A stretch of 64,000 nt of DNA from an uncultured Erysipelotrichaceae bacterium (GCA_902764545.1 CACWWC010000001.1:26482-90481), one strand, 5' to 3'; shown: positions 7,234-58,365, counted from the first letter of the stretch. Program-made: numbers and translations. The notes: generated from the sequence alone by a model not told the origin.

Positions 7234-8827
7234 ATATGGTTGGATAAACCCCTGGGCCGATAGGTAATCCAATTATGTACCATAATACCACTAATAAAAT
7301 CCAGGCTAATGATATTATTAAGCAGTATGGTGAAATAATTTTGAGTGATTCTCTTATTGTATATGGTTTGTTTTTCTTTAAGTTATAAATATTTAAATAT
7401 CCAATATAAATTACAAATGAGGCAAGCAAAGGGGTAAATCCTTTTGTCATTGAATCTCCTGCTCTCATTACGATTTGCGCAAACTGTGGTGATATATTAG
7501 CTTGCATAAATGCTGGTACTATTACTGGTGAAAAAATCAACCATTTGCTTGCTGGTGATGTCAATACCAAATTTGATATAGCAATAAAAATTAGAGAAAT
7601 AACAATTAAAGGTATACCATTAAAGGATATTTTTGAAAGAAGGTTCGCAAGCCATGCGGTGATAATCAATCCAATGTTTGTTTTTCTAAAAACTGAAATA
7701 AATTGTGATACCACAAACATTAGAATAAAGATACTACCAAGGTTAGAAAACTTTTTGCTTGCTTTTTCTATAATATCTCTATCGTTTGTAATTGATTTGC
7801 TTCCTATTCCATATGCTACTCCTGCCAACATGAAAAACATTGATACTATAAATGTAAATCCATCTTGAAAATATGAATTTGGGCCAAAAAGTTGATTTAG
7901 GTATGTATTTTCTTTCATGTCTAGTAGCAGTCCCGACCATGGTAGGTGAGGTATTAATGAATATATAAAAAATAATAAAAATAATATTGAAATAATTAAA
8001 GCATATCTTAATCCTCTTTTTTCATACTTATCTCGTTCCATTTGTTTTTGTTCAGCTTCTTCAATTGTTAATGATTGGTATTTTTCAGTTGGAGATAAAT
8101 CCTCATCTCTTTTATACTTTCCTATTTTTGGAGCAATTATATTTTCAACTATTATTGTTCCAACTATCGATAATATGATTGTTGCAAATATTATAAATAT
8201 AAGATTAGATGTTAATGAAATGTGTGATGTTTCATCAATAAGTCTTGCGGCAATTTTTGTGTAGTTTATCAATGAAACTTCTGTAGAACCAACAAAAATT
8301 GAAATACTGTATCCAAATGATACTCCACAAAAAGCTGTTATTATTCCTAAAATTGGATTCCTGTCATTTATAAAATAAATTAACGCAATTAGTGGAATTA
8401 AAATAGCATATCCGACTTCATTTATTAGTGATGATACGATTGAAATAAAAATAATAATAAATGTAAATAAATATTTTGGTATTTTGCTAACATGCCTTCT
8501 TGTAAGCATTTCAATGAATCCTGTTCCTTCTGCCACTGTTAGCCCAATTAATGATAATAATAATGTACCTAATGGTGCAAAACTTAAAAAGTTTTTTGCA
8601 GAATTACTAATGATATATTTTATTCCATCAAATGAAAATAAGTTCTCTACAGTAATTAGCACTGGCTCTAATTCATTTGTATTAGCATTTATTGTATTGT
8701 ATGTTGCCTGCATTTGAAACAAGGACAATATTCCACTTAGCAGTACAATTAGAAATGTTAATCCAATAAAAACCGTTATCGGATGAAAATAAAACTTTTT
8801 TAATCTTAATTTTCCTGTTTCGTACAT
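7232..8827 (-). CDS. AbgT-family (p-aminobenzoyl-glutamate / antimetabolite) transporter
   Basis: 531 aa polytopic membrane protein. AKNFLSFAPLGTLLLSLIGLTVAEGTGFIEML and VGYAILIPLIALIYFINDRNPILGIITAFCGVSFGYS match conserved AbgT blocks from memory. Confidence 0.8.
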   Translation of the reverse strand: MYETGKLRLKKFYFHPITVFIGLTFLIVLLSGILSLFQMQATYNTINANTNELEPVLITVENLFSFDGIKYIISNSAKNFLSFAPLGTLLLSLIGLTVAEGTGFIEMLTRRHVSKIPKYLFTFIIIFISIVSSLINEVGYAILIPLIALIYFINDRNPILGIITAFCGVSFGYSISIFVGSTEVSLINYTKIAARLIDETSHISLTSNLIFIIFATIILSIVGTIIVENIIAPKIGKYKRDEDLSPTEKYQSLTIEEAEQKQMERDKYEKRGLRYALIISILFLLFFIYSLIPHLPWSGLLLDMKENTYLNQLFGPNSYFQDGFTFIVSMFFMLAGVAYGIGSKSITNDRDIIEKASKKFSNLGSIFILMFVVSQFISVFRKTNIGLIITAWLANLLSKISFNGIPLIVISLIFIAISNLVLTSPASKWLIFSPVIVPAFMQANISPQFAQIVMRAGDSMTKGFTPLLASFVIYIGYLNIYNLKKNKPYTIRESLKIISPYCLIISLAWILLVVLWYIIGLPIGPGVYPTI

Positions 8828-8837
8828 GAGTCCTCCT

Positions 8838-9023
8838 TTATTCCTTTATTTTTTTTATTTTTTTATTAAATTCAATTCTAGGAATGAGAACCGTTCTACC
8901 ACAGTTAAGACATTTTATTTTTATATCTGCCCCTACTCTAACTATTTCCCATTCATTGGTACCACATGGATGTTGTTTTTTCATGATTACTTTTGTACCT
9001 AGTTTATAATTATTATTTTCCAT
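8838..9023 (-). CDS. DUF951 family small protein (YyzM-like)
   Basis: 61 aa. KKQHPCGTNEWEIVRVGADIKIKCLNCGRTVLIPR has the CxxxxxW...CxxC pattern of DUF951. Conserved neighbour of ychF in Firmicutes. Confidence 0.7.
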   Translation of the reverse strand: MENNNYKLGTKVIMKKQHPCGTNEWEIVRVGADIKIKCLNCGRTVLIPRIEFNKKIKKIKE

Positions 9024-9828
9024 TATGCACCTCTATTTGTGGATATGGTATTTTAATACTGTTAATATCAAATTCTTTTTTGATTTCTTTTCTTAGATAT
9101 CTTTCTGTTATAAAGTGTTTCATTGGTTCTGTTTCTACAACAACTCTGTATATAACGCCTGAATCTGAAAGTTCTTGTACTCCCCATATCTCTGGTTCTT
9201 TGATTGCATAAGGGATTTTTCCTTTAATTCTTGTAAATAATTTTTCAAAGGCTTTTTCTATTTCACTTTCATTATTTTCATACGAAATACTGATATCTAC
9301 TACAGCTAAGGAATTGTTACTACTGTAATTTATTATATTATCCATATAATGATTAGCTATAATCTTTGTTGCTCCTTTATAATTTACAATTCTTGTTGTT
9401 CTTAATCCTATCGAAGTCACTGTTCCCATAAATCCTTCTACTTCAATTGTATCTCCTACTTCATATTCTCCTTCTGTAATTATAGAAAAACCTGCAATCA
9501 AATCTTTTGCTAAATCTTGGAAGGCTAATCCAATAATTGCTGTTCCTATTCCTAGCCCTGCAATTATTGACTTTACTTCTATTCCCATTTGAGATAATAT
9601 TCCTAGCAAAACACAAATAATTACTATGTATTTTATGATATTAAGTAATAATGATCTAATAGTATTAATTCTCTGAATTTGTGTTTTCTTTAATAATTTA
9701 TTTTTTGTCGTTGACTTTACAACTACTCTTTTTATTATTTTGAATACTATTATACCTATTATTATATAAATTATAGAATTAATAACCTGATATAGACTAA
9801 TTTTAGTATCAAAAAAATTTATTGTCAT
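9013..9828 (-). CDS. Small-conductance mechanosensitive channel (MscS family)
   Basis: 271 aa, three N-terminal TM helices, then GLAFQDLAKDLIAGFSIITEGEYEVGDTIEVEGFMGTVTSIGLRTTRI, the MscS beta-domain signature. Confidence 0.85.
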   Translation of the reverse strand: MTINFFDTKISLYQVINSIIYIIIGIIVFKIIKRVVVKSTTKNKLLKKTQIQRINTIRSLLLNIIKYIVIICVLLGILSQMGIEVKSIIAGLGIGTAIIGLAFQDLAKDLIAGFSIITEGEYEVGDTIEVEGFMGTVTSIGLRTTRIVNYKGATKIIANHYMDNIINYSSNNSLAVVDISISYENNESEIEKAFEKLFTRIKGKIPYAIKEPEIWGVQELSDSGVIYRVVVETEPMKHFITERYLRKEIKKEFDINSIKIPYPQIEVHNGK

Positions 9829-9829
9829 T

Positions 9830-10750
9830 TTATCTTCCTACCTCGATGTTCATTTCTTCAAGTAATCTATTTAGGTCATTTCCATTTGCAAAGCTTATTT
9901 CTATTTTATTTTTTTTAATTACTACCCTTGTACCTAATTTTTCACTTATTTCTTCTTGAAGATACTGATATTCATTCTGAGTCTTTATTCTCGGTTTTTG
10001 AGGATTACTTTTGATAATTATTGGTTCCTGTGATAATTCTTCTAGTTTTCTAACACTTAGGCCTTCAGATATTACTTTCTCTTCTAATTCTCTTTGTTGT
10101 TCACTATTATCTATTTTGCTTAGTACTCTTGCATGTCCCATTGTTATTTTCTTTTCATTTACGTCTGTCTGAATGGTTGGTGGAAGTGTTAATAAACCCA
10201 ACATATTTGTAATGTGGCTTCTACTTTTTCCTAATCTTTTCGCAAGTTCTTCTTGTGTCAAAGATAATGTTTCTTGTAGTTTTTTATATGCTTGGGCTTC
10301 TTCTATTGCAGTTAAATTCTCTCTTTGAAGGTTTTCTAATAATGCAATTTCCATCATTTGAGTGTCATTGAAATCTCTTATTATTGCCGGAATTTCTGAT
10401 AATCCTGCTAATTTAGATGCTTTTACTCTTCTTTCTCCTGCAATTATTTCATAACCTTTGATAGATTTTTTGATAATAATTGGCTGAAAAACGCCGTGTT
10501 CTTTAATGGATTCTGCTAATTCTGATAATGCACTTTCGTCAAAAAACTTTCTAGGCTGATATGGATTACTCCTTAGTTCATTTATGTTCACCATAGTAAT
10601 TGCTTCTTTTGGTGTTTCATTAACAATCTTTTCTTCAACTGTACTATAATCCAATATTTCACTATTAAATAATTCTTCTAGTCCTTTACCCAAGGCTTTT
10701 CTTCTTGGGATTCCTGTCTCATTTACATTATTTGTTTCCATTTCTTTCAA
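9830..10750 (-). CDS. parB: Chromosome partitioning protein ParB/Spo0J
   Basis: 306 aa. GLGKGL-like KALGKGLEELF, ParB box NPYQPRKFFDE...EHGVFQPIIIK...YEIIAGERRVKASKLAG, and an HTH region. Immediately downstream of soj with a 23-nt overlap. Confidence 0.9.
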   Translation of the reverse strand: MKEMETNNVNETGIPRRKALGKGLEELFNSEILDYSTVEEKIVNETPKEAITMVNINELRSNPYQPRKFFDESALSELAESIKEHGVFQPIIIKKSIKGYEIIAGERRVKASKLAGLSEIPAIIRDFNDTQMMEIALLENLQRENLTAIEEAQAYKKLQETLSLTQEELAKRLGKSRSHITNMLGLLTLPPTIQTDVNEKKITMGHARVLSKIDNSEQQRELEEKVISEGLSVRKLEELSQEPIIIKSNPQKPRIKTQNEYQYLQEEISEKLGTRVVIKKNKIEISFANGNDLNRLLEEMNIEVGR

Positions 10751-11516
10751 TCACTTCCTTTGCTAGATTAATATATGCTTCTGAGCCTCTGCTTTTTGGA
10801 TCATATGCAATTATTGGTTCTCCATGTGATGGAGCTTCTGTTAATCTTACAAGTCTAGGTATTATTGTATTATAGACCTTTTCTTTAAAGAAACTTCTAA
10901 TATCCTCTACAACTTCAAACCCTAAGTTTGTCCTTGAATCCAACATTGTTAATAATACTCCTTCTATATCTAGTGTTGGATTTAGTGTTTTTTGTGCTAT
11001 CATTATTGTCTTTAACAATTGTGTTATTCCCTCTAATGCAAAAAATTCACATTGTACTGGAATTATTACTGAATTAGAGGCTGTTAGTGCATTTGTTGTT
11101 ATTACATCAAGTGAGGGAGGACAATCTATTATTATATAGTCAAAACTTTCTTTTATGTCTACTAAGCTATTTTTTAGTTGTTCTCCTTTTTTAAAGCCTT
11201 TTTCCTGTCTGCTTTTTTCTCCTAATTCATTACCAAGCCCGGCTAGGTTTATTGTTGACGGTACAACATAAAACTTTTTATACTTTGTTTTAACCATTGC
11301 TTCTGTAATGTTGCATTCACCGATTAACACATCATATATACTTTTTTCTATTTCTCCTTTATTTATTCCTACACCAGTAGTTGTATTACCTTGAGGATCT
11401 AAGTCTATTAAAAGTACTTTTTTACCTAATACTGCTAGTGATGCAGAAAGATTTATACTTGTTGTTGTCTTACCTACTCCACCTTTTTGATTTACTAATG
11501 ATATAACCTTTCCCAT
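10728..11516 (-). CDS. soj: Chromosome partitioning ATPase ParA/Soj
   Basis: 262 aa; deviant Walker A NQKGGVGKTTTSINL, DLDPQGN, IIDCPPSL. Confidence 0.92.
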   Translation of the reverse strand: MGKVISLVNQKGGVGKTTTSINLSASLAVLGKKVLLIDLDPQGNTTTGVGINKGEIEKSIYDVLIGECNITEAMVKTKYKKFYVVPSTINLAGLGNELGEKSRQEKGFKKGEQLKNSLVDIKESFDYIIIDCPPSLDVITTNALTASNSVIIPVQCEFFALEGITQLLKTIMIAQKTLNPTLDIEGVLLTMLDSRTNLGFEVVEDIRSFFKEKVYNTIIPRLVRLTEAPSHGEPIIAYDPKSRGSEAYINLAKEVIERNGNK

Positions 11517-21863: not shown

Positions 21864-22033
21864 AAAATATCCACAATAATTGTGGCTTTTTTTTCGCTTT
21901 TTATATTATTAATGAAATTTGTTGAAAAAAAAAGTAATTTTCTACAAATTTTGACAAAATTCTACATTTTTATTTGGTATTAATATTTGTGGAAGCCTTA
22001 CTTCGGCTTCCAAGAAGGGGGATTCAATTGAAA

Positions 22034-22480
22034 ATGAAGTATGAAATTAGTAAAGGTACTTTGGCTATTATTCCAAATGAAAAAAATAGTAGTCTGGTAT
22101 ATGAAGATGAGGAGAGGTATGTTGTAAATGAAAAACCATTTAATATCATGGACTCAAGTTGTAGATATTTTGGTAGTTCATATGAGGGAAGAAAAGAAGG
22201 CGCTAAAAGTATTTTAGGAGCAGAGTATAAAGTTCCAATTGTAGTAGAAGATTCTGAAAATCTAATTGTCTTTCCTACAACATCACCTTATGCAGATGAC
22301 TGTGCATGGATATCTTTAAGAAGGGTGCATAATATTTATAAAATAGATGCTAATAATAGTAGGGTAGTATTTGATAATAATAAAGAAATAATTGTACCAT
22401 GTTCTTTCAGAAGCCTTGAAAATCAGTTATCAAGAGCATCAAGACTTGATTTAGTACTTCGAAACAGAAAAAATAGTTAG
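22034..22480 (+). CDS. comK: ComK-family competence transcription factor
   Basis: Start re-called at ATG 22034 (AAGAAGGGGG upstream). SCRYFGSSYEGRKEGA, KVPIVVED, IVFPTTSP and CAWISL line up with B. subtilis ComK SCRFFGSSYAGRKAG, KPPIMVD, FLFPTLS and CGWIS (from memory). Confidence 0.8.
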   Translation: MKYEISKGTLAIIPNEKNSSLVYEDEERYVVNEKPFNIMDSSCRYFGSSYEGRKEGAKSILGAEYKVPIVVEDSENLIVFPTTSPYADDCAWISLRRVHNIYKIDANNSRVVFDNNKEIIVPCSFRSLENQLSRASRLDLVLRNRKNS

Positions 22481-25655: not shown

Positions 25656-28109
25656 ATGGATAGATTAGAAAAAAATAATATTGTACAAGAAGTGCAGGAC
25701 TCATTTTTAGAGTATTCCATGAGTGTTATTGTTGCACGTGCTCTTCCAGACTTAAGAGATGGATTAAAACCTGTTCATAGACGTATTTTATATTCGATGT
25801 ATGAATCTGGATATACTCCTGATAAACCTCATAAGAAGAGTGCAAGAATTGTTGGAGATGTTATGGGTAAATATCATCCTCATGGAGATTCTTCAATTTA
25901 TGAAGCTATGGTTAGGATGGCTCAGGATTTTTCATATAGATATATGTTGGTTGATGGACATGGAAATTTTGGTAATATTGAAGGATATGGTGCAGCAGCA
26001 ATGAGATATACCGAATCGCGTTTATCAAAAATTTCGTTAGAATTATTAAAAAATATTAATAAAGATACTGTTGATTTTATACCAAATTTTGATGAGAGTG
26101 AAAGAGAGCCCGAGGTTTTGCCATCAAGGTTTCCAAACATTTTGGTAAATGGTACGACAGGTATTGCAGTAGGAATGGCAACAAATATTCCACCACATAA
26201 TTTAAGTGAAGTAATTGACGGTTGTGTAGCTTATATTGACAATCAAGATATAGATTTAGATGAATTAATGAAATATATTAAAGGTCCTGATTTTCCTACG
26301 GGGGCAACAATTTTAGGTAATAGTGGTATTAGAAAAGCATATGAAACAGGAAGAGGAACAATAACAATAAGAAGTAAAGCAACAATAGAAGAAACGAATG
26401 GCAGACAATATATCATTATTGATGAAGTCCCTTATGGTGTTAATACATTAGAATTAAAAAATAAGGTTGCAGAACTTGTTCATAATAAAACAATTGAAGG
26501 TATTGCTGATTATCACTCAGATTTAAAAAATGGAATTAAAATCACTATTACATTAAAAAAAGATGCAAATGCGCAAGTTGTATTAAATAAATTGTATAAG
26601 CATACTCAATTTCAGACAACATATGGAATTATTTTCTTAATGTTAGATCAGGGAGTACCAAAAACATTAGGATTGAAAGATATAATCTCAAAATATATAG
26701 ATTATCAAAAAGAAGTAATTATTAGGAGAACAAAATTTGATCTTGATGTAGCTGAAAAGAGAGTTCATATTTTAGAAGGATTGAAGATTGCTTTAGATAA
26801 TATTGATGCTGTTATAAAAGTGATTAGGGGATCTAAATCAGATGAAGAAGCAAGGCAAGGATTAATAAATGGTTTCTCATTAACTGAAATACAAGCTAAT
26901 GCAATACTAGAAATGAGATTACGTCGTTTAACTGGTTTAGAGCGCGAAAAAATAGAAAATGAGCTTAATGACTTACTAAAATTAATTGATGATTTAAAAG
27001 CGATTTTAGCTAGCGATGAAAGGATATTAGAAGTAATTAAGAATGAATTGTTGGAAATTAAACAAAAATATGGAGATGAGAGAAGAACAAATATTGATAT
27101 GACTGCTATTGAATATATTGAAGATGAATCTCTTATACCAGAAGAAAATGTAATTATTAATTTAACAAAAAATGGTTATATAAAAAGATTGAGGACTGAT
27201 ACTTACAAAACTCAAAATAGAGGAGGAGTGGGAATTAAAGGTATGACCACAAATGAAGAAGACTTTGTGGAAAGAATTTTATCTATGAGTACACATGATT
27301 ATTTATTATTCTTTTCAAATAAGGGAAGAGTATATAGAATTAAGGGATATGAGGTTCCAGAGTTTTCTAGACAGTCAAAGGGTTTACCAATTGTAAATTT
27401 ATTACCTTTAGAGAAAGATGAGAACATTAGTTCGATATTAAGCGTCAAACCTAATGATGATTTTACTAAATATTTGCTATTTTGCACGAAAAAAGGAATT
27501 GTTAAAAGAACTGCTATTGAAGAGTTTGATAATATTAGAAAAGGTGGAAAAATAGCGATTGTTTTGAGAGATGATGATGAATTAATTAGTGTAAAAAAGA
27601 CCTGTGGAAAAAATGAGATTGTTATTGGTGCAAGTAATGGAAGAATGGTTAGGTTTGATGAAAATGAAATTCGTTGCATGGGAAGAAGTAGTTCTGGTGT
27701 TAAAGGTATAGAATTAGATGGAGCTATTGTTGTTGGTGCAGATGCTGTTGAATCTGGACATATGGTTTTAATTGTTACGGAGAATGGATATGGGAAGAAA
27801 TCTTTAATTGATGAATATAGATTAACGCATAGAGGAAGCAAAGGTGTTAAAGCATATAATGTTACTGAAAAGAATGGAGTAATGGTTTCTCTAAAATGTT
27901 TTAATCCAAATGCTGAATTAGACTTAATTATTATGACAGATAGTGGAATAATCATAAAATTACCATTAGAGCAAGTATCAACATTAAAAAGAGCAACGCA
28001 AGGAATTAGATTGATGAATCTAAAAGATGATCAAAGAGTTTCTACTGTTGCTTTAGTGGAAAAAGAGGATATTATTGAAAATACAGATGCTGATGATAAT
28101 AATTCTTGA
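25656..28109 (+). CDS. gyrA: DNA gyrase subunit A
   Basis: 817 aa. [19 protein letters not shown], the QRDR-like segment [17 protein letters not shown], the active-site AAMRYTE, and a beta-pinwheel C-terminal domain. Confidence 0.97.
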
Positions 28110-28124
28110 TTTATGAATAAAAAG

Positions 28125-28153
28125 CAAAGACTATTATTAGTCTTTGTTTTTTT
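28125..28153 (+). terminator. Rho-independent terminator of gyrA
   Basis: caaagacta (28125-28133), loop ttat, tagtctttg (28138-28146), then seven T. Confidence 0.8.
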
Positions 28154-28162
28154 ATAATTATA

Positions 28163-28178
28163 TGTTTCACGTGAAACT
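28163..28178. other. parS: parS centromere-like site 1
   Basis: TGTTTCACGTGAAACt matches 15 of 16 positions of the palindromic parS consensus TGTTNCACGTGAAACA. The inner 14 bp are a perfect palindrome. It is followed directly by the DnaA-box-like ttttccaca (28179-28187). Confidence 0.85.
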
Positions 28179-28241
28179 TTTTCCACAGTTTTTGTTATTA
28201 AATTTATATGAAGATTTAACTTATTTTAATTATACTTTTAA

Positions 28242-28250
28242 ATTTCCACA
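28242..28250 (+). promoter_or_regulatory. DnaA-box-like 9-mer
   Basis: atttccaca, 7 of 9 to TTATCCACA. It is the same variant as at 20689 and, in complement, the oriC box at 19050. Confidence 0.4.
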
Positions 28251-28610
28251 AAAATAGTATTTATTTTATTAATTAATTATTTTTCTTAAAGATATTATTT
28301 CAATTGTATTACTATATTAGACTTTTTTACATAATAAAAGCATAAACTTCAATAATTTAAAATTGTAAAATGATATTTTTTAAGTTTGGAGATTTAATTA
28401 TCTATTAGAAAAGACGTATAAGATGTTAGAAAATTATAAAAGTATTAACATTATTTTTAATTTTTAAGAATTAATAATTAATCACTTTTGTTAAGCTTAA
28501 AATATTCTTTATATAATAACTTAAATCCTAAAAAAGATTTAAAGTTTATTTATGATATAAATCTAAAAATAAAATTAAAATGAGTTTTGAATGATTACAA
28601 TAATGAAAAT

Positions 28611-28626
28611 TATTTCCCGGGAAATA
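28611..28626. other. Noc-binding site (NBS) palindrome 1
   Basis: TATTTCCCGGGAAATA is identical to the 16-bp B. subtilis NBS consensus (core ATTTCCCGGGAAAT). It is embedded in a 26-bp perfect palindrome at 28606-28631. Confidence 0.8.
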
Positions 28627-28673
28627 ATTTTTATTAATTAAAAATCACCCTATGTATATTATATTTTTTCAAA

Positions 28674-28723
28674 AAAATTATTTCCCAAAATTATTTCCCA
28701 AAATTATTTCCCGGGAAATAATT
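28674..28723. repeat. Three tandem 13-bp NBS half-site repeats, the last completing NBS palindrome 2
   Basis: aaaattatttccc x3 at 28674-28686, 28687-28699 and 28700-28712. The third runs into gggaaataatt, giving TATTTCCCGGGAAATA at 28705-28720 within a 22-bp palindrome (28702-28723). Confidence 0.8.
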
Positions 28724-28770
28724 CTTATTTATTTAAATGTATTAGTGATTTATAATTTTTAAATATTTAT

Positions 28771-28839
28771 TTTTCCACAATAATTGTGATTTTTTTTATG
28801 ATTGTTATTTGTTAAATTCTTAAATATATTTTATCCACA
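28771..28839. promoter_or_regulatory. DnaA boxes, including one perfect consensus box
   Basis: ttttccaca at 28771-28779 forms an inverted pair with tcacaatta (ccacaataattgtg). TTATCCACA at 28831-28839 is a 9 of 9 match to the consensus. Confidence 0.6.
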
Positions 28840-28877
28840 TTAATTGATTTGCTTTTAATATGGCTAATAAGTTGTAA

Positions 28878-28893
28878 TGTTTCACGTGAAACT
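28878..28893. other. parS: parS centromere-like site 2
   Basis: TGTTTCACGTGAAACt, identical to site 1, followed by ttttcaca. Together with flanks it forms a 24-26 bp direct repeat of the 28162-28187 element. Confidence 0.85.
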
Positions 28894-28942
28894 TTTCACA
28901 TTTTTTATTTACATTGATTTTTATTTATAGTAAAATATATTC

Positions 28943-29014
28943 GTGCAATAAAAGTGTCTGAAATAGGTCAGGATTGGAAAATAGCAGCCTTAAGGTCCAA
29001 CTTTTATGTGCACA
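28943..29014 (+). ncRNA. ffs: Small (4.5S-type) signal recognition particle RNA
   Basis: AGGUCAGGAUUGGAAAAUAGCAGCC matches the SRP domain IV core (E. coli GGUCAGGUCCGGAAGGAAGCAGCC), including the GGAA tetraloop. Closing stem gtgcaataaaagt / acttttatgtgcac. Upstream TTGATT...TAAAAT promoter-like boxes and a downstream T-run. Confidence 0.75.
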
Positions 29015-29032
29015 TTTTTATTTGGAGGAAAT

Positions 29033-29485
29033 ATGAACTTAAAATATATGGATTTGGCATTTATGGAGGCAAAAAAAGCTTATGATAATAATGAAGTGCC
29101 TATTGGAGTGGTTATTGTTAAAGATAATTCTGTATTATCTTTATCCTATAATAAGGTGGAAACCAATAATTGTGCAATTTACCATGCTGAAATACAAGCT
29201 ATAATAGATGCTTCGAAAAAAGTTAATAATTGGAGGTTAGATGGATGTGATATGTACACTACTTTAGATCCTTGCCCTATGTGTGCTGGTGCAATCAAGC
29301 AGGCAAGGATTAGTAATGTTTATTCTGCATTAAGTACTACATCTAATATTAATCGTACTATTATTAATGACATTTTTACATGTGCGGATTCAAGTAATCC
29401 TTCTGTTAATTTTATTTCTAATATATCTCCTGACAGGGCAAAAGTTCTTTTATCTGAGTTTTTTCAAAAGCAAAGAAAAAAATAA
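29033..29485 (+). CDS. tadA: tRNA-specific adenosine deaminase TadA
   Basis: The track ORF start at 29006 would overlap the SRP RNA. ATG at 29033 behind GGAGGA gives MNLKYMDLAFMEAKKA... Zinc motifs HAE (YHAEIQAI) and PCPMCAGA. Confidence 0.9.
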   Translation: MNLKYMDLAFMEAKKAYDNNEVPIGVVIVKDNSVLSLSYNKVETNNCAIYHAEIQAIIDASKKVNNWRLDGCDMYTTLDPCPMCAGAIKQARISNVYSALSTTSNINRTIINDIFTCADSSNPSVNFISNISPDRAKVLLSEFFQKQRKK

Positions 29486-56964: not shown

Positions 56965-58365
56965 GTGAGAATTTTTAACACATTAACAAAAAAAGTAGAG
57001 GATTTTATTCCGCATAATAAAGATATAGTAACTATGTATACTTGTGGGCCAACTGTTTATCATTATGCGCATATTGGAAATATGCGAACATATATTAGTG
57101 AGGATGTACTGGAAAAAACATTAGTTTTTTTAGGGTATAATGTTAAACGCTGTATGAATATAACTGATGTTGGGCATATGGTTGGAGATGGTGATGCTGG
57201 TGAGGATAAAATGTCTGTTGCAGCAAAGAGGGAGCATAAGAGTTCACTACAAATTGCAGAATTTTATACTAATGCGTTTAAAGCTGATTGTGAAAAGCTT
57301 AATATTAGATGGCCTAAAATTGTTAGTAATGCGAGTGATAATATTGATGAATATATTAAAATAGTTAGTTATTTAATTGATAACGATTTTGCATATATAA
57401 GTGATGGTAATGTTTATTTTGATACAACAAAATCGCCAAATTATTATGAATTAAGTGGGCGAAACAGTGATGATTTAATTGTAGCTGTTAGAGAGGACAT
57501 TTCTGAGGACTCTTCTAAAAGAAATCCTTTTGATTTTGGCCTTTGGTTTACAAATTCTAAGTTTAATAATCAAGAGCTACAGTGGGATTCTCCTTGGGGT
57601 AGAGGATACCCGGGATGGCATATAGAATGTTCAGGAATTTCTATAAAATACTTGGGTGAATATTTGGATATTCATTGTGGCGCAGAAGATGCCGTTTTTC
57701 CACATCATACTAATGAAATTGCCCAATCAGAATCTTACTTAGGTCATAAATGGTGTAATTATTGGGTTCATTTTGGTTTTTTAAATGATAATTCTGGGAA
57801 AATGAGTAAATCAAATGGTGAGTTTTTAACTGTGTCTGTATTAGAAGAAAAGGGGTTTGATCCTATTATATATAGATTTTATTGTTTGCAGTCTCATTAT
57901 CATAAACAGTTGGTTTTTACCTTTGATGGATTAAGTCAAACTAGGAATACTTATAATAAATTAATTAACAAAATTAAACAGATATCTGATGATGGTTCAT
58001 CAATTGAAAAAAATAAGACTGAAAGTTTTATAAATAGATTTAAAGATGAGTTATCTGATGATCTTAATACTGCAAATGCAATAACAGTTTTGTATGATGT
58101 TATAAAAAGCGATTTAAATAATAATTCAAAGCTTTATTTAATTGGAGAATTTGATAAAGTACTAAGTCTAAATTTGATTCAATCATTTGATAATAAGATT
58201 GAAGATAATCTCCTTGATTTTATTAATGAACAAATTGAGTTAAGAAAATGTGCTAAATCTGAAAAAAATTATGAGTTAGCAGATAAAATTAGAACTGATC
58301 TTGCACAAAAAGGTATAGTTTTAAAAGATACCCGTGATGGAACGACTTTTGAAATTGTTAAGTGA
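56965..58365 (+). CDS. cysS: Cysteine--tRNA ligase
   Basis: 466 aa, GTG start behind GAGGTGA. HIGN (HYAHIGNMRTY), KMSKS, and zinc-binding C/H residues (WHIECS). Confidence 0.95.
   Translation: MRIFNTLTKKVEDFIPHNKDIVTMYTCGPTVYHYAHIGNMRTYISEDVLEKTLVFLGYNVKRCMNITDVGHMVGDGDAGEDKMSVAAKREHKSSLQIAEFYTNAFKADCEKLNIRWPKIVSNASDNIDEYIKIVSYLIDNDFAYISDGNVYFDTTKSPNYYELSGRNSDDLIVAVREDISEDSSKRNPFDFGLWFTNSKFNNQELQWDSPWGRGYPGWHIECSGISIKYLGEYLDIHCGAEDAVFPHHTNEIAQSESYLGHKWCNYWVHFGFLNDNSGKMSKSNGEFLTVSVLEEKGFDPIIYRFYCLQSHYHKQLVFTFDGLSQTRNTYNKLINKIKQISDDGSSIEKNKTESFINRFKDELSDDLNTANAITVLYDVIKSDLNNNSKLYLIGEFDKVLSLNLIQSFDNKIEDNLLDFINEQIELRKCAKSEKNYELADKIRTDLAQKGIVLKDTRDGTTFEIVK

Follow-up and report, generated by a model that had tools for sequence, protein, structure and literature searches.

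Introduction

Noc is the textbook example of a duplicated ParB protein, with a new DNA specificity, a role in membrane tethering and division control, and sites scattered over the chromosome. In Bacillus subtilis, about 70 Noc-binding sites (NBS) are distributed over the chromosome arms and depleted near the terminus. Iterated centromeres are known from plasmids and phages, such as sopC of the F plasmid with its iterated 43-bp repeats. The Noc/NBS nucleoid-occlusion system was reportedly described by Wu et al. in 2009. Here, we analyzed a 64,000-nucleotide stretch of DNA (hereafter the window) from an uncultured Erysipelotrichaceae bacterium (GCA_902764545.1, CACWWC010000001.1:26482-90481), in which two NBS palindromes, one of them preceded by tandem 13-bp half-sites, lie between two parS sites in the spacer downstream of gyrA, and a Noc orthologue, named NocL, is encoded on the other side of the replication origin (oriC).

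In the rule that separates NBS from parS recognition, Q173 reads A1, R201 reads C6, and a lysine is needed at only one of positions 179 and 184 (Jalal et al., 2020; PMC7383237). The N-terminal amphipathic helix of Noc (residues ~1-15) is conserved in all Noc proteins examined, and its deletion abolishes membrane binding and function in B. subtilis (PMC4331003).

The locus shares with the Noc/NBS systems of B. subtilis and Staphylococcus aureus the identical site TATTTCCCGGGAAATA, the order rsmG-noc-soj-parB, the residues Q173, K179 and R201, and the motifs for binding cytidine triphosphate (CTP). It differs from them in that NocL lacks the membrane helix, has a residue other than lysine at 184, is 344-525 aa long among orthologues with a long disordered linker and scores below the family cut-off, and in that the sites of the lineage lie near oriC, often in tandem and interleaved with parS, with a palindrome extended to 24-26 bp. 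The parS consensus TGTTTCACGTGAAACA, the origin-proximal position, a ParB with the ParA-interacting peptide RRKALGKGLEELF and an adjacent soj are as in chromosomal ParABS systems, whereas here the parS sites are gathered in one intergenic spacer, and those of relatives run head to tail with 75-200-bp periods, interleaved with the site of a second ParB paralogue. Spacers of relatives resemble plasmid and phage iterated centromeres as tandem ParB-type sites in a short non-coding region; in contrast to these, they are chromosomal, fixed between housekeeping genes and carry two specificities per array, and in the window there are just 2 + 2 sites. Judged from sequence, the two palindromes are probably NBS-type loading sites for NocL set between two parS sites of ParB in an origin-side spacer, with NocL more probably an origin-marking or adaptor protein (probability about 0.7).

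Two NBS and two parS sites share the spacer between gyrA and ffs

The centres of NBS1 and NBS2 (Table 1) are 94 bp apart. A search of the 64-kb window with up to two mismatches placed the 14-bp core ATTTCCCGGGAAAT at 28612-28625 and 28706-28719 and at no other position; two occurrences compare with 0.22 expected, and 0 of 100 shuffles gave two. NBS1 fits the lineage consensus AAATTATTTCCCGGGAAATAATTT described below. The 13-bp unit AAAATTATTTCCC is the exact left arm of the extended palindrome, with copy 3 forming the left arm of NBS2, and the array is the top-scoring tandem repeat of the window (Tandem Repeats Finder score 78). The sequence TTATTTCCC occurs eight times in the window against 1.19 expected, six of them within the 120-bp stretch from NBS1 to NBS2. 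CCCGGG is found three times, the third at 57609 inside cysS, the identity of which was confirmed.

The two parS sites match the consensus at 15 of 16 positions each and are the sole parS-like sites of the window at up to two mismatches; at up to three mismatches, 0 of 100 shuffles reached three matches. No parS-like site lies inside the parB gene. Together with three DnaA-box sequences, the elements follow the order parS - box - NBS1 - (13-mer)x3/NBS2 - box - box - parS - ffs. The GC skew changes sign at ~18-19 kb, upstream of dnaA (19201), which places the NBS pair ~9.5 kb from oriC, on its right side.

All coordinates given by the first-pass annotation for the palindromes and the 13-mer array proved correct, as did the identity of the palindromes with the experimentally defined 16-bp B. 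subtilis NBS, the location of the other CCCGGG inside cysS and the distance of ~9.5 kb from oriC, which is borne out by the GC skew and the position of dnaA. That annotation overlooked the two parS sites and the DnaA boxes of the same spacer and presented the palindromes as an isolated oddity; they are instead a small local version of a composite parS/NBS locus found downstream of gyrA throughout the lineage.

The gyrA-ffs non-coding spacer is put at 923 bp. An open reading frame (ORF) scan found none of at least 40 aa inside it; ORFs of this size overlap its edges only, at 28031-28186 (minus strand, gyrA end) and at 28954-29085 and 29006-29485 (ffs/tadA end).

Table 1. Positions of the spacer elements, flanking genes and ParB-family genes in the window (SRP, signal recognition particle; HTH, helix-turn-helix).
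Feature	Position	Strand	Description
ParB/Spo0J, canonical, 306 aa	9830..10750	-	N-terminal RRKALGKGLEELF peptide; HTH R173, G201
soj/parA ATPase	10728..11516	-	
NocL, Noc orthologue, 402 aa	11607..12815	-	ParB N-domain and HTH; nearest relatives Noc
gyrA	25656-28109		upstream of spacer
Non-coding spacer	28110..28931	.	between gyrA and ffs/tadA; conserved place of the lineage parS/NBS cluster
gyrA terminator hairpin	28125-28146		terminator scan
parS-1	28163..28178	.	TGTTTCACGTGAAACT, one mismatch to TGTTTCACGTGAAACA; just past the gyrA terminator hairpin
DnaA-box-like	28179..28187	+	TTTTCCACA; abuts parS-1
NBS1	28606..28631	.	perfect 26-bp palindrome AAAATTATTTCCCGGGAAATAATTTT; 16-bp NBS TATTTCCCGGGAAATA inside at 28611-28626
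Tandem 13-mer x3	28674..28712	+	AAAATTATTTCCC; perfect copies, 13-bp period
NBS2	28702..28723	.	perfect 22-bp palindrome AATTATTTCCCGGGAAATAATT; 16-bp NBS inside at 28705-28720
DnaA-box-like	28771..28779	+	TTTTCCACA
DnaA box, perfect	28831..28839	+	TTATCCACA
parS-2	28878..28893	.	TGTTTCACGTGAAACT; ~40 bp from the downstream SRP RNA gene; repeat family D1 with parS-1
ffs, SRP RNA gene	28932-29029		downstream of spacer; Rfam match
tadA	29033-29485		downstream of ffs; dnaX beyond

NBS and parS form alternating arrays in related species

A DnaA-seeded scan of the species representatives in GTDB returned 80 loci with 61-79% DnaA identity, labelled by their depositors as uncultured Bacilli or 'Tenericutes'; the window's own species is not among them (best DnaA identity 79%). 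One of the loci belongs to Candidatus Faecimonas gallistercoris, the genus of which has been put in GTDB order RF39, family CAG-611 (Gilroy et al.). Synteny is conserved on both sides of oriC, and NocL was found in every locus whose upstream flank was covered, L028 excepted.

Sites were counted in the 54 related loci that include the gyrA 3' end. Perfect 14-bp NBS cores numbered 118 in 47.1 kb of spacers and 15 in the other 1.04 Mb, many of those in arrays being recent duplicates and thus non-independent, and parS sites with up to one mismatch numbered 149 and 8, respectively. Of the 54 spacers, 46 contained an NBS and 43 a parS at up to one mismatch, and the two occurred together in 40. The lineage NBS is the 24-bp palindrome AAATTATTTCCCGGGAAATAATTT, which exceeds the 16-bp B. 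subtilis site in length and holds in independent single sites as well.

In many spacers, NBS and parS strictly alternate in tandem arrays with as many as 15 sites. The L073 array reads NPNPNPNPNPNPNPN with a 126-bp period, and that of L081, which ends at ffs, comprises 5 + 5 sites repeated every 196 bp. At least five NBS and six parS with a 125-bp period were counted in L060, where the array continues past the end of the fetched locus; this alternating NPNPNP array occurs in a long-read circular genome of 1.52 Mb (OZ006970.1). Other compositions were also observed: 76-bp units that also carry TGTGGAAAA (L054, 19990-20520), nine NBS units that all contain a DnaA-box-like GTGT(A/G)GAAAAG and lack parS (L064, 18959-19643), and, in some other species, six to eight parS after a single NBS.

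Perfect DnaA boxes were 5.6-fold denser in the relatives' spacers than in the flanks (0.56 versus 0.10 per kb). A role of the DnaA box as a universal third component was rejected, since a box in every unit was confined to one sub-clade (L054, L064 and L090). In these three loci, the box in each repeat unit is of the TGTGGAAAA/TTTTCCACA type (L090, 18972-19245).

No clean natural knock-out, that is, a genome without NocL or without NBS, was found among the related loci. The spacer of L083 is without NBS, yet NocL is present and an NBS lies near dnaA; L028 has NBS, and noc was not within its fetched flank.

Extended NBS are concentrated around the origin

A location-blind scan of Joint Genome Institute metagenome contigs with the 22-mer AATTATTTCCCGGGAAATAATT yielded at least 120 stretches. 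Of the 120 stretches listed, 107 have neighbours homologous to genes from the origin region of the window. The gyrA|tadA interval accounts for 51 of the sites listed, with 40 more at contig ends beside gyrA or tadA, followed by the inside of dnaX (26), recF|gyrB (13), jag|mnmE (12), holB|mfd (10) and mnmE|mnmG (7). The five long stretches without origin context in the same matches all have NBS flanking polA, and one of them, L145, shares a 71-kb contig with the dnaX-region stretch L116. The polA-flanking sites (polC|polA and polA|fpg) are at L096 7783; L128 1990; L145 1947 and 4886; L177 9357; and L178 5297.

The lineage NBS are concentrated at ~-5 to +22 kb of oriC, plus a recurrent position beside polA. 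No scattered, terminus-depleted pattern was seen in the lineage loci or among the metagenome matches listed for the 22-mer query. By its sequence distribution, the extended NBS appears to behave as parS usually does, with few origin-proximal sites, unlike the ~70 scattered NBS of B. subtilis.

Within dnaX, the NBS falls in the variable linker (~residue 340-400) and is read in two frames across species, as IISREII or NYFPGNN, indicating that the DNA, not the peptide, is under selection. Extended NBS embedded in dnaX were seen in L092, L100, L103, L107, L116, L207 and others; the dnaX of the window has none. A single extended NBS ~3.9 kb upstream of dnaA was observed in L042, L071, L076, L078, L082 and L085, and L048 and L080 have single extended NBS as well. 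These single sites on the left of oriC sit in the short mnmE|mnmG and jag|mnmE gaps, so that NBS bracket the origin in some species.

NocL retains Noc-type specificity residues and lacks the membrane helix

Across oriC from the spacer, the genes follow the order rsmG - 402-aa ParB paralogue - soj - 306-aa ParB, matching gidB(rsmG)-noc-soj-spo0J of B. subtilis. NocL contains the ParB N-terminal CTP-binding domain (PF02195, 5e-34) and the ParB HTH (PF17762, 2e-33), and alignment to Noc showed that the CTP-binding GERR and ENLQR motifs are present. Its best solved relative is Noc (7nfu, 210 bits, versus 165 bits for B. subtilis Spo0J), whereas that of the 306-aa ParB is B. subtilis Spo0J (221 bits, versus 159 bits for Noc).

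With residues numbered as by Jalal et al., the NocL HTH GKSQSAVANKIRLLSL...ISERHAR has Q173, K179, S184 and R201, and the ParB HTH GKSRSHITNMLGLLTL...TMGHAR has R173 and G201. By the 2020 specificity rule (PMC7383237), these residues predict a preference of NocL for NBS and of ParB for parS. The pattern GKSQSxVANK.RLL.L...ISERHAR, with Q173, K179 and R201, was found in 49 of 49 NocL orthologues, namely those longer than 330 aa that the 80 species loci and the window yielded.

The amphipathic membrane-targeting helix is absent from the N-terminus of all 49 aligned orthologues. The NocL N-terminus, MAEQDKDEVV, aligns at Noc residue ~22-25, the ORF begins seven residues before the ParB N-domain, and an upstream extension of this ORF is not possible. 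The Soj-interacting N-terminal peptide of ParB is also absent from NocL. In an AlphaFold2 model, a folded part (residues 8-201) is followed by a disordered linker of ~150 residues rich in N, E, P and K and by a small C-terminal domain of one helix and two strands. The linker (residues ~205-355) holds the invariant short motifs PLxPT, NYGKVxIAPP and DYFxTPDL, which may be partner-binding peptides; no Pfam family was found in the linker or the C-terminal domain at E<=10. An extra linker motif, FNNPFAxNPIF, was observed in one sub-clade. The NocL-type family comprises thousands of metagenome proteins.

The Noc-like gene of the first-pass annotation therefore stands as a noc orthologue by relationship, synteny and the Q173/K179/R201 signature; with no membrane helix and a score under the TIGR04285 cut-off, however, NocL is not a canonical Noc. 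A distant, higher-GC relative, L131, encodes a short Noc of 267 aa (8474-9061), the MKIPFF N-terminus of which resembles the canonical membrane helix, and an extended NBS (8333) is located directly upstream of this gene. RF39 is thought to have been derived by reduction from walled, sporulating Bacilli (PMC10868615). Since L131 keeps an MKIPFF Noc and RF39 is regarded as reduced, the helix-less form is more probably derived than ancestral.

The 13-mer array varies between strains

The strain set consisted of ten metagenome contigs with identical TadA, nine of which are resolvable at the repeat; L004 was left out of the copy-number count owing to a scaffold N gap at the NBS/13-mer region (~2660-2775). 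The window allele with three perfect 13-mers is present in six strain contigs, L003 has one degenerate 13-mer followed by two perfect ones, and L008 and L009 have one degenerate followed by four perfect. An intact NBS2 ends the array in every resolvable contig (9/9). Since the strain alleles differ by whole 13-bp units, the 13-mer is a slipped-strand variable tandem repeat.

In L008, NBS1 carries a C>A change giving TTTCACGGGAAA, by which one half-site becomes the parS-like TTTCAC. In this mutated site, TATTTCACGGGAAATA at ~2547-2562 (window 28611-28626), one half-site is a natural hybrid, in which the base that residue 201 reads is A, as in parS.

The perfect head-to-tail 13-bp copies and the between-strain change in 13-bp steps are those of slipped-strand variable-number tandem repeats, from which the array differs in that its unit is one arm of a protein-binding palindrome and in that it always ends in an intact palindrome. 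Single extra arms, in direct orientation and 12-14 bp from a full NBS, were also found in four closer relatives, on the left in L030, on the right in L022 and L033 and on both sides in L023. Orphan half-sites are rare overall and absent from most species and most array units, and the polymorphic triple 13-mer of the window is the most extreme form of a tendency seen repeatedly. Recurrent duplication of one arm by slippage, which the A-rich and CCC microhomology and the degenerate upstream copy would aid, is the favoured explanation, because copy number is unstable, most sites are without extra arms, and each 13-bp step would rotate neighbouring units by ~86 degrees on the helix.

Slipped-strand expansion had been one of two proposals of the first-pass annotation and is borne out by the 2, 3 or 4 perfect copies among strains, with the full palindrome always kept. 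For the other, that half-sites nucleate or orient spreading, no evidence was found: their number is polymorphic, and with a 13-bp period they would face different sides of the helix. A simple microsatellite, for which that annotation named variation without any associated full palindrome as the sign, was not encountered; the number varies, but the full palindrome is always kept. Its question of whether half-sites recur is answered by the single extra ones beside a full NBS in four related species.

Discussion

We propose a model of binding, CTP-dependent spreading and cellular role that builds on the observed identity, clustering, conservation and polymorphism of the sites and on the protein features. 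NocL would load at NBS and the canonical ParB at parS, each on its own palindrome, and each paralogue would close on CTP as a clamp and slide onto the flanking DNA. Two different ParB-type complexes would form over the same origin domain, including oriC at 9.5 kb. ParB would engage Soj and probably SMC, and NocL would bring another partner through its linker and C-terminal domain. Because it has neither the Noc membrane helix nor the Soj peptide and its sites are concentrated around oriC, NocL would more probably act at the origin, as a second marker protein or an adaptor, than in nucleoid occlusion by membrane tethering along the whole chromosome. The 13-mers probably have no required function and would do little beyond altering the NBS1-NBS2 spacing and adding weak half-sites, though they may be modulatory.

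Several points weigh against this model. Position 184 is S in the window and S, A or G in most relatives, while it is K in Noc, and NocL reaches 289.6 bits against the NCBIfam Noc model TIGR04285, below the cut-off of 315, with a match that covers residues 8-210 only. The distribution of NBS rests on loci and metagenome contigs rather than complete genomes of the lineage; the 22-mer query has lineage-specific flanks and could therefore miss scattered NBS limited to the 14-16-bp core, and a window of only 64 kb leaves room for a B. subtilis-like density of ~1 site per 60 kb. Array copy numbers taken from short-read assemblies are uncertain, and the recurrent single half-sites could reflect selection, not neutral slippage.

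Under classical nucleoid occlusion, a true Noc would tether NBS DNA to the membrane, and the two sites would be among many scattered over the chromosome. Orthology and synteny with noc, the identity of the NBS with that of B. subtilis, the conserved CTP-binding motifs and the short MKIPFF Noc of L131, which goes together with the same extended NBS, are all in line with such a role; it is nevertheless unlikely given an amphipathic helix in 0 of 49 orthologues, the loss of which abolishes Noc function in B. subtilis (PMC4331003), the origin-proximal position of 107 of the 120 extended-NBS matches listed, the lack of a third NBS in the 64-kb window and the sub-threshold family score. We also regard as improbable that the iterated half-sites are a selected element that recruits NocL monomers, sets the direction of clamp release or tunes the occupancy of NBS2. 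Such an element would agree with a repeat unit identical to one arm of the extended palindrome and with the extra direct half-sites 12-14 bp from NBS in L022, L023, L030 and L033. It is harder to reconcile with 2, 3 or 4 copies within one species, a degenerate copy in three contigs, the lack of orphan half-sites in most species and array units, and the angular offset between neighbouring copies. Moreover, ParB-family proteins bind their sites as dimers that engage both half-sites.

The palindromes could also be operators of an unrelated regulator of ffs, tadA or dnaX, hairpins, terminators or a repeat like the repetitive extragenic palindromes, with a coincidental match to the NBS. They do sit before ffs, in a spacer that is long and AT-rich, and the single-stranded DNA fold of 28596-28735 beats shuffled sequences (z = -5.2), but this fold is the trivial pairing of two identical palindromes. 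A stem would have one G-C pair around a 4-nt loop, and a terminator scan found no terminator at the palindromes, the gyrA hairpin being the sole one detected. Furthermore, the motif recurs in many places that are not promoters, including dnaX in two frames, it alternates with parS in arrays, and a ParB paralogue with NBS-type residues co-occurs in all genomes examined; a coincidental match is therefore highly improbable. An RNA reading of the palindromes was likewise rejected, as Rfam gave only the SRP RNA, a T-box and an L10 leader in the whole window and nothing at the palindromes.

Loading of NocL and ParB on neighbouring palindromes thus remains the preferred explanation. A wider proposal is made more tentatively, and is possible although somewhat doubtful: the RF39-type Noc orthologue would be a second centromere-type clamp that shares a composite, iterated parS/NBS(/DnaA-box) locus with ParB, its linker motifs recruiting a partner. 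If true, the interleaved arrays would be a natural 'two-ParB centromere' and would show a duplicated ParB and its sites diverging side by side, parS and NBS differing at two positions per half-site. Noc affects replication initiation in S. aureus (PMC5540599); because of this and the enrichment of DnaA boxes in the spacers, a link to initiation control is conceivable, if speculative.

The components parS/ParB, NBS/Noc and slipped-strand repeats are known, whereas the helix-less long-linker Noc family, the origin-restricted NBS and the interleaved parS/NBS arrays at a fixed chromosomal position are apparently undescribed. A full-text literature search found nothing relevant on interleaved parS/NBS arrays, origin-clustered NBS or RF39/RFN20 ParB paralogues, most subscription journals being outside the scope of that search. 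An uncultured order as a whole keeps the NBS specificity without the membrane helix, with sites at the origin interleaved with parS. If confirmed, NBS specificity would be separable from nucleoid occlusion, and two CTP-dependent clamps would naturally load onto one stretch of a few hundred base pairs, raising questions of roadblocking, mixing and cooperation and providing testable material on the rise of new centromere-like specificities. In addition, tandem arrays of this kind break or collapse short-read assemblies exactly at the chromosome segregation locus, as the gap in L004 shows.

Other features of the window

Bacillus has an SRP RNA of the large type. The SRP RNA of the window is of the small (97-nt) bacterial type, which is consistent with a reduced, Mycoplasma-related lineage. 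A ComK-family protein (PF06338, 2e-44) is encoded at 21974-22480, between dnaN and recF, in this reduced genome.

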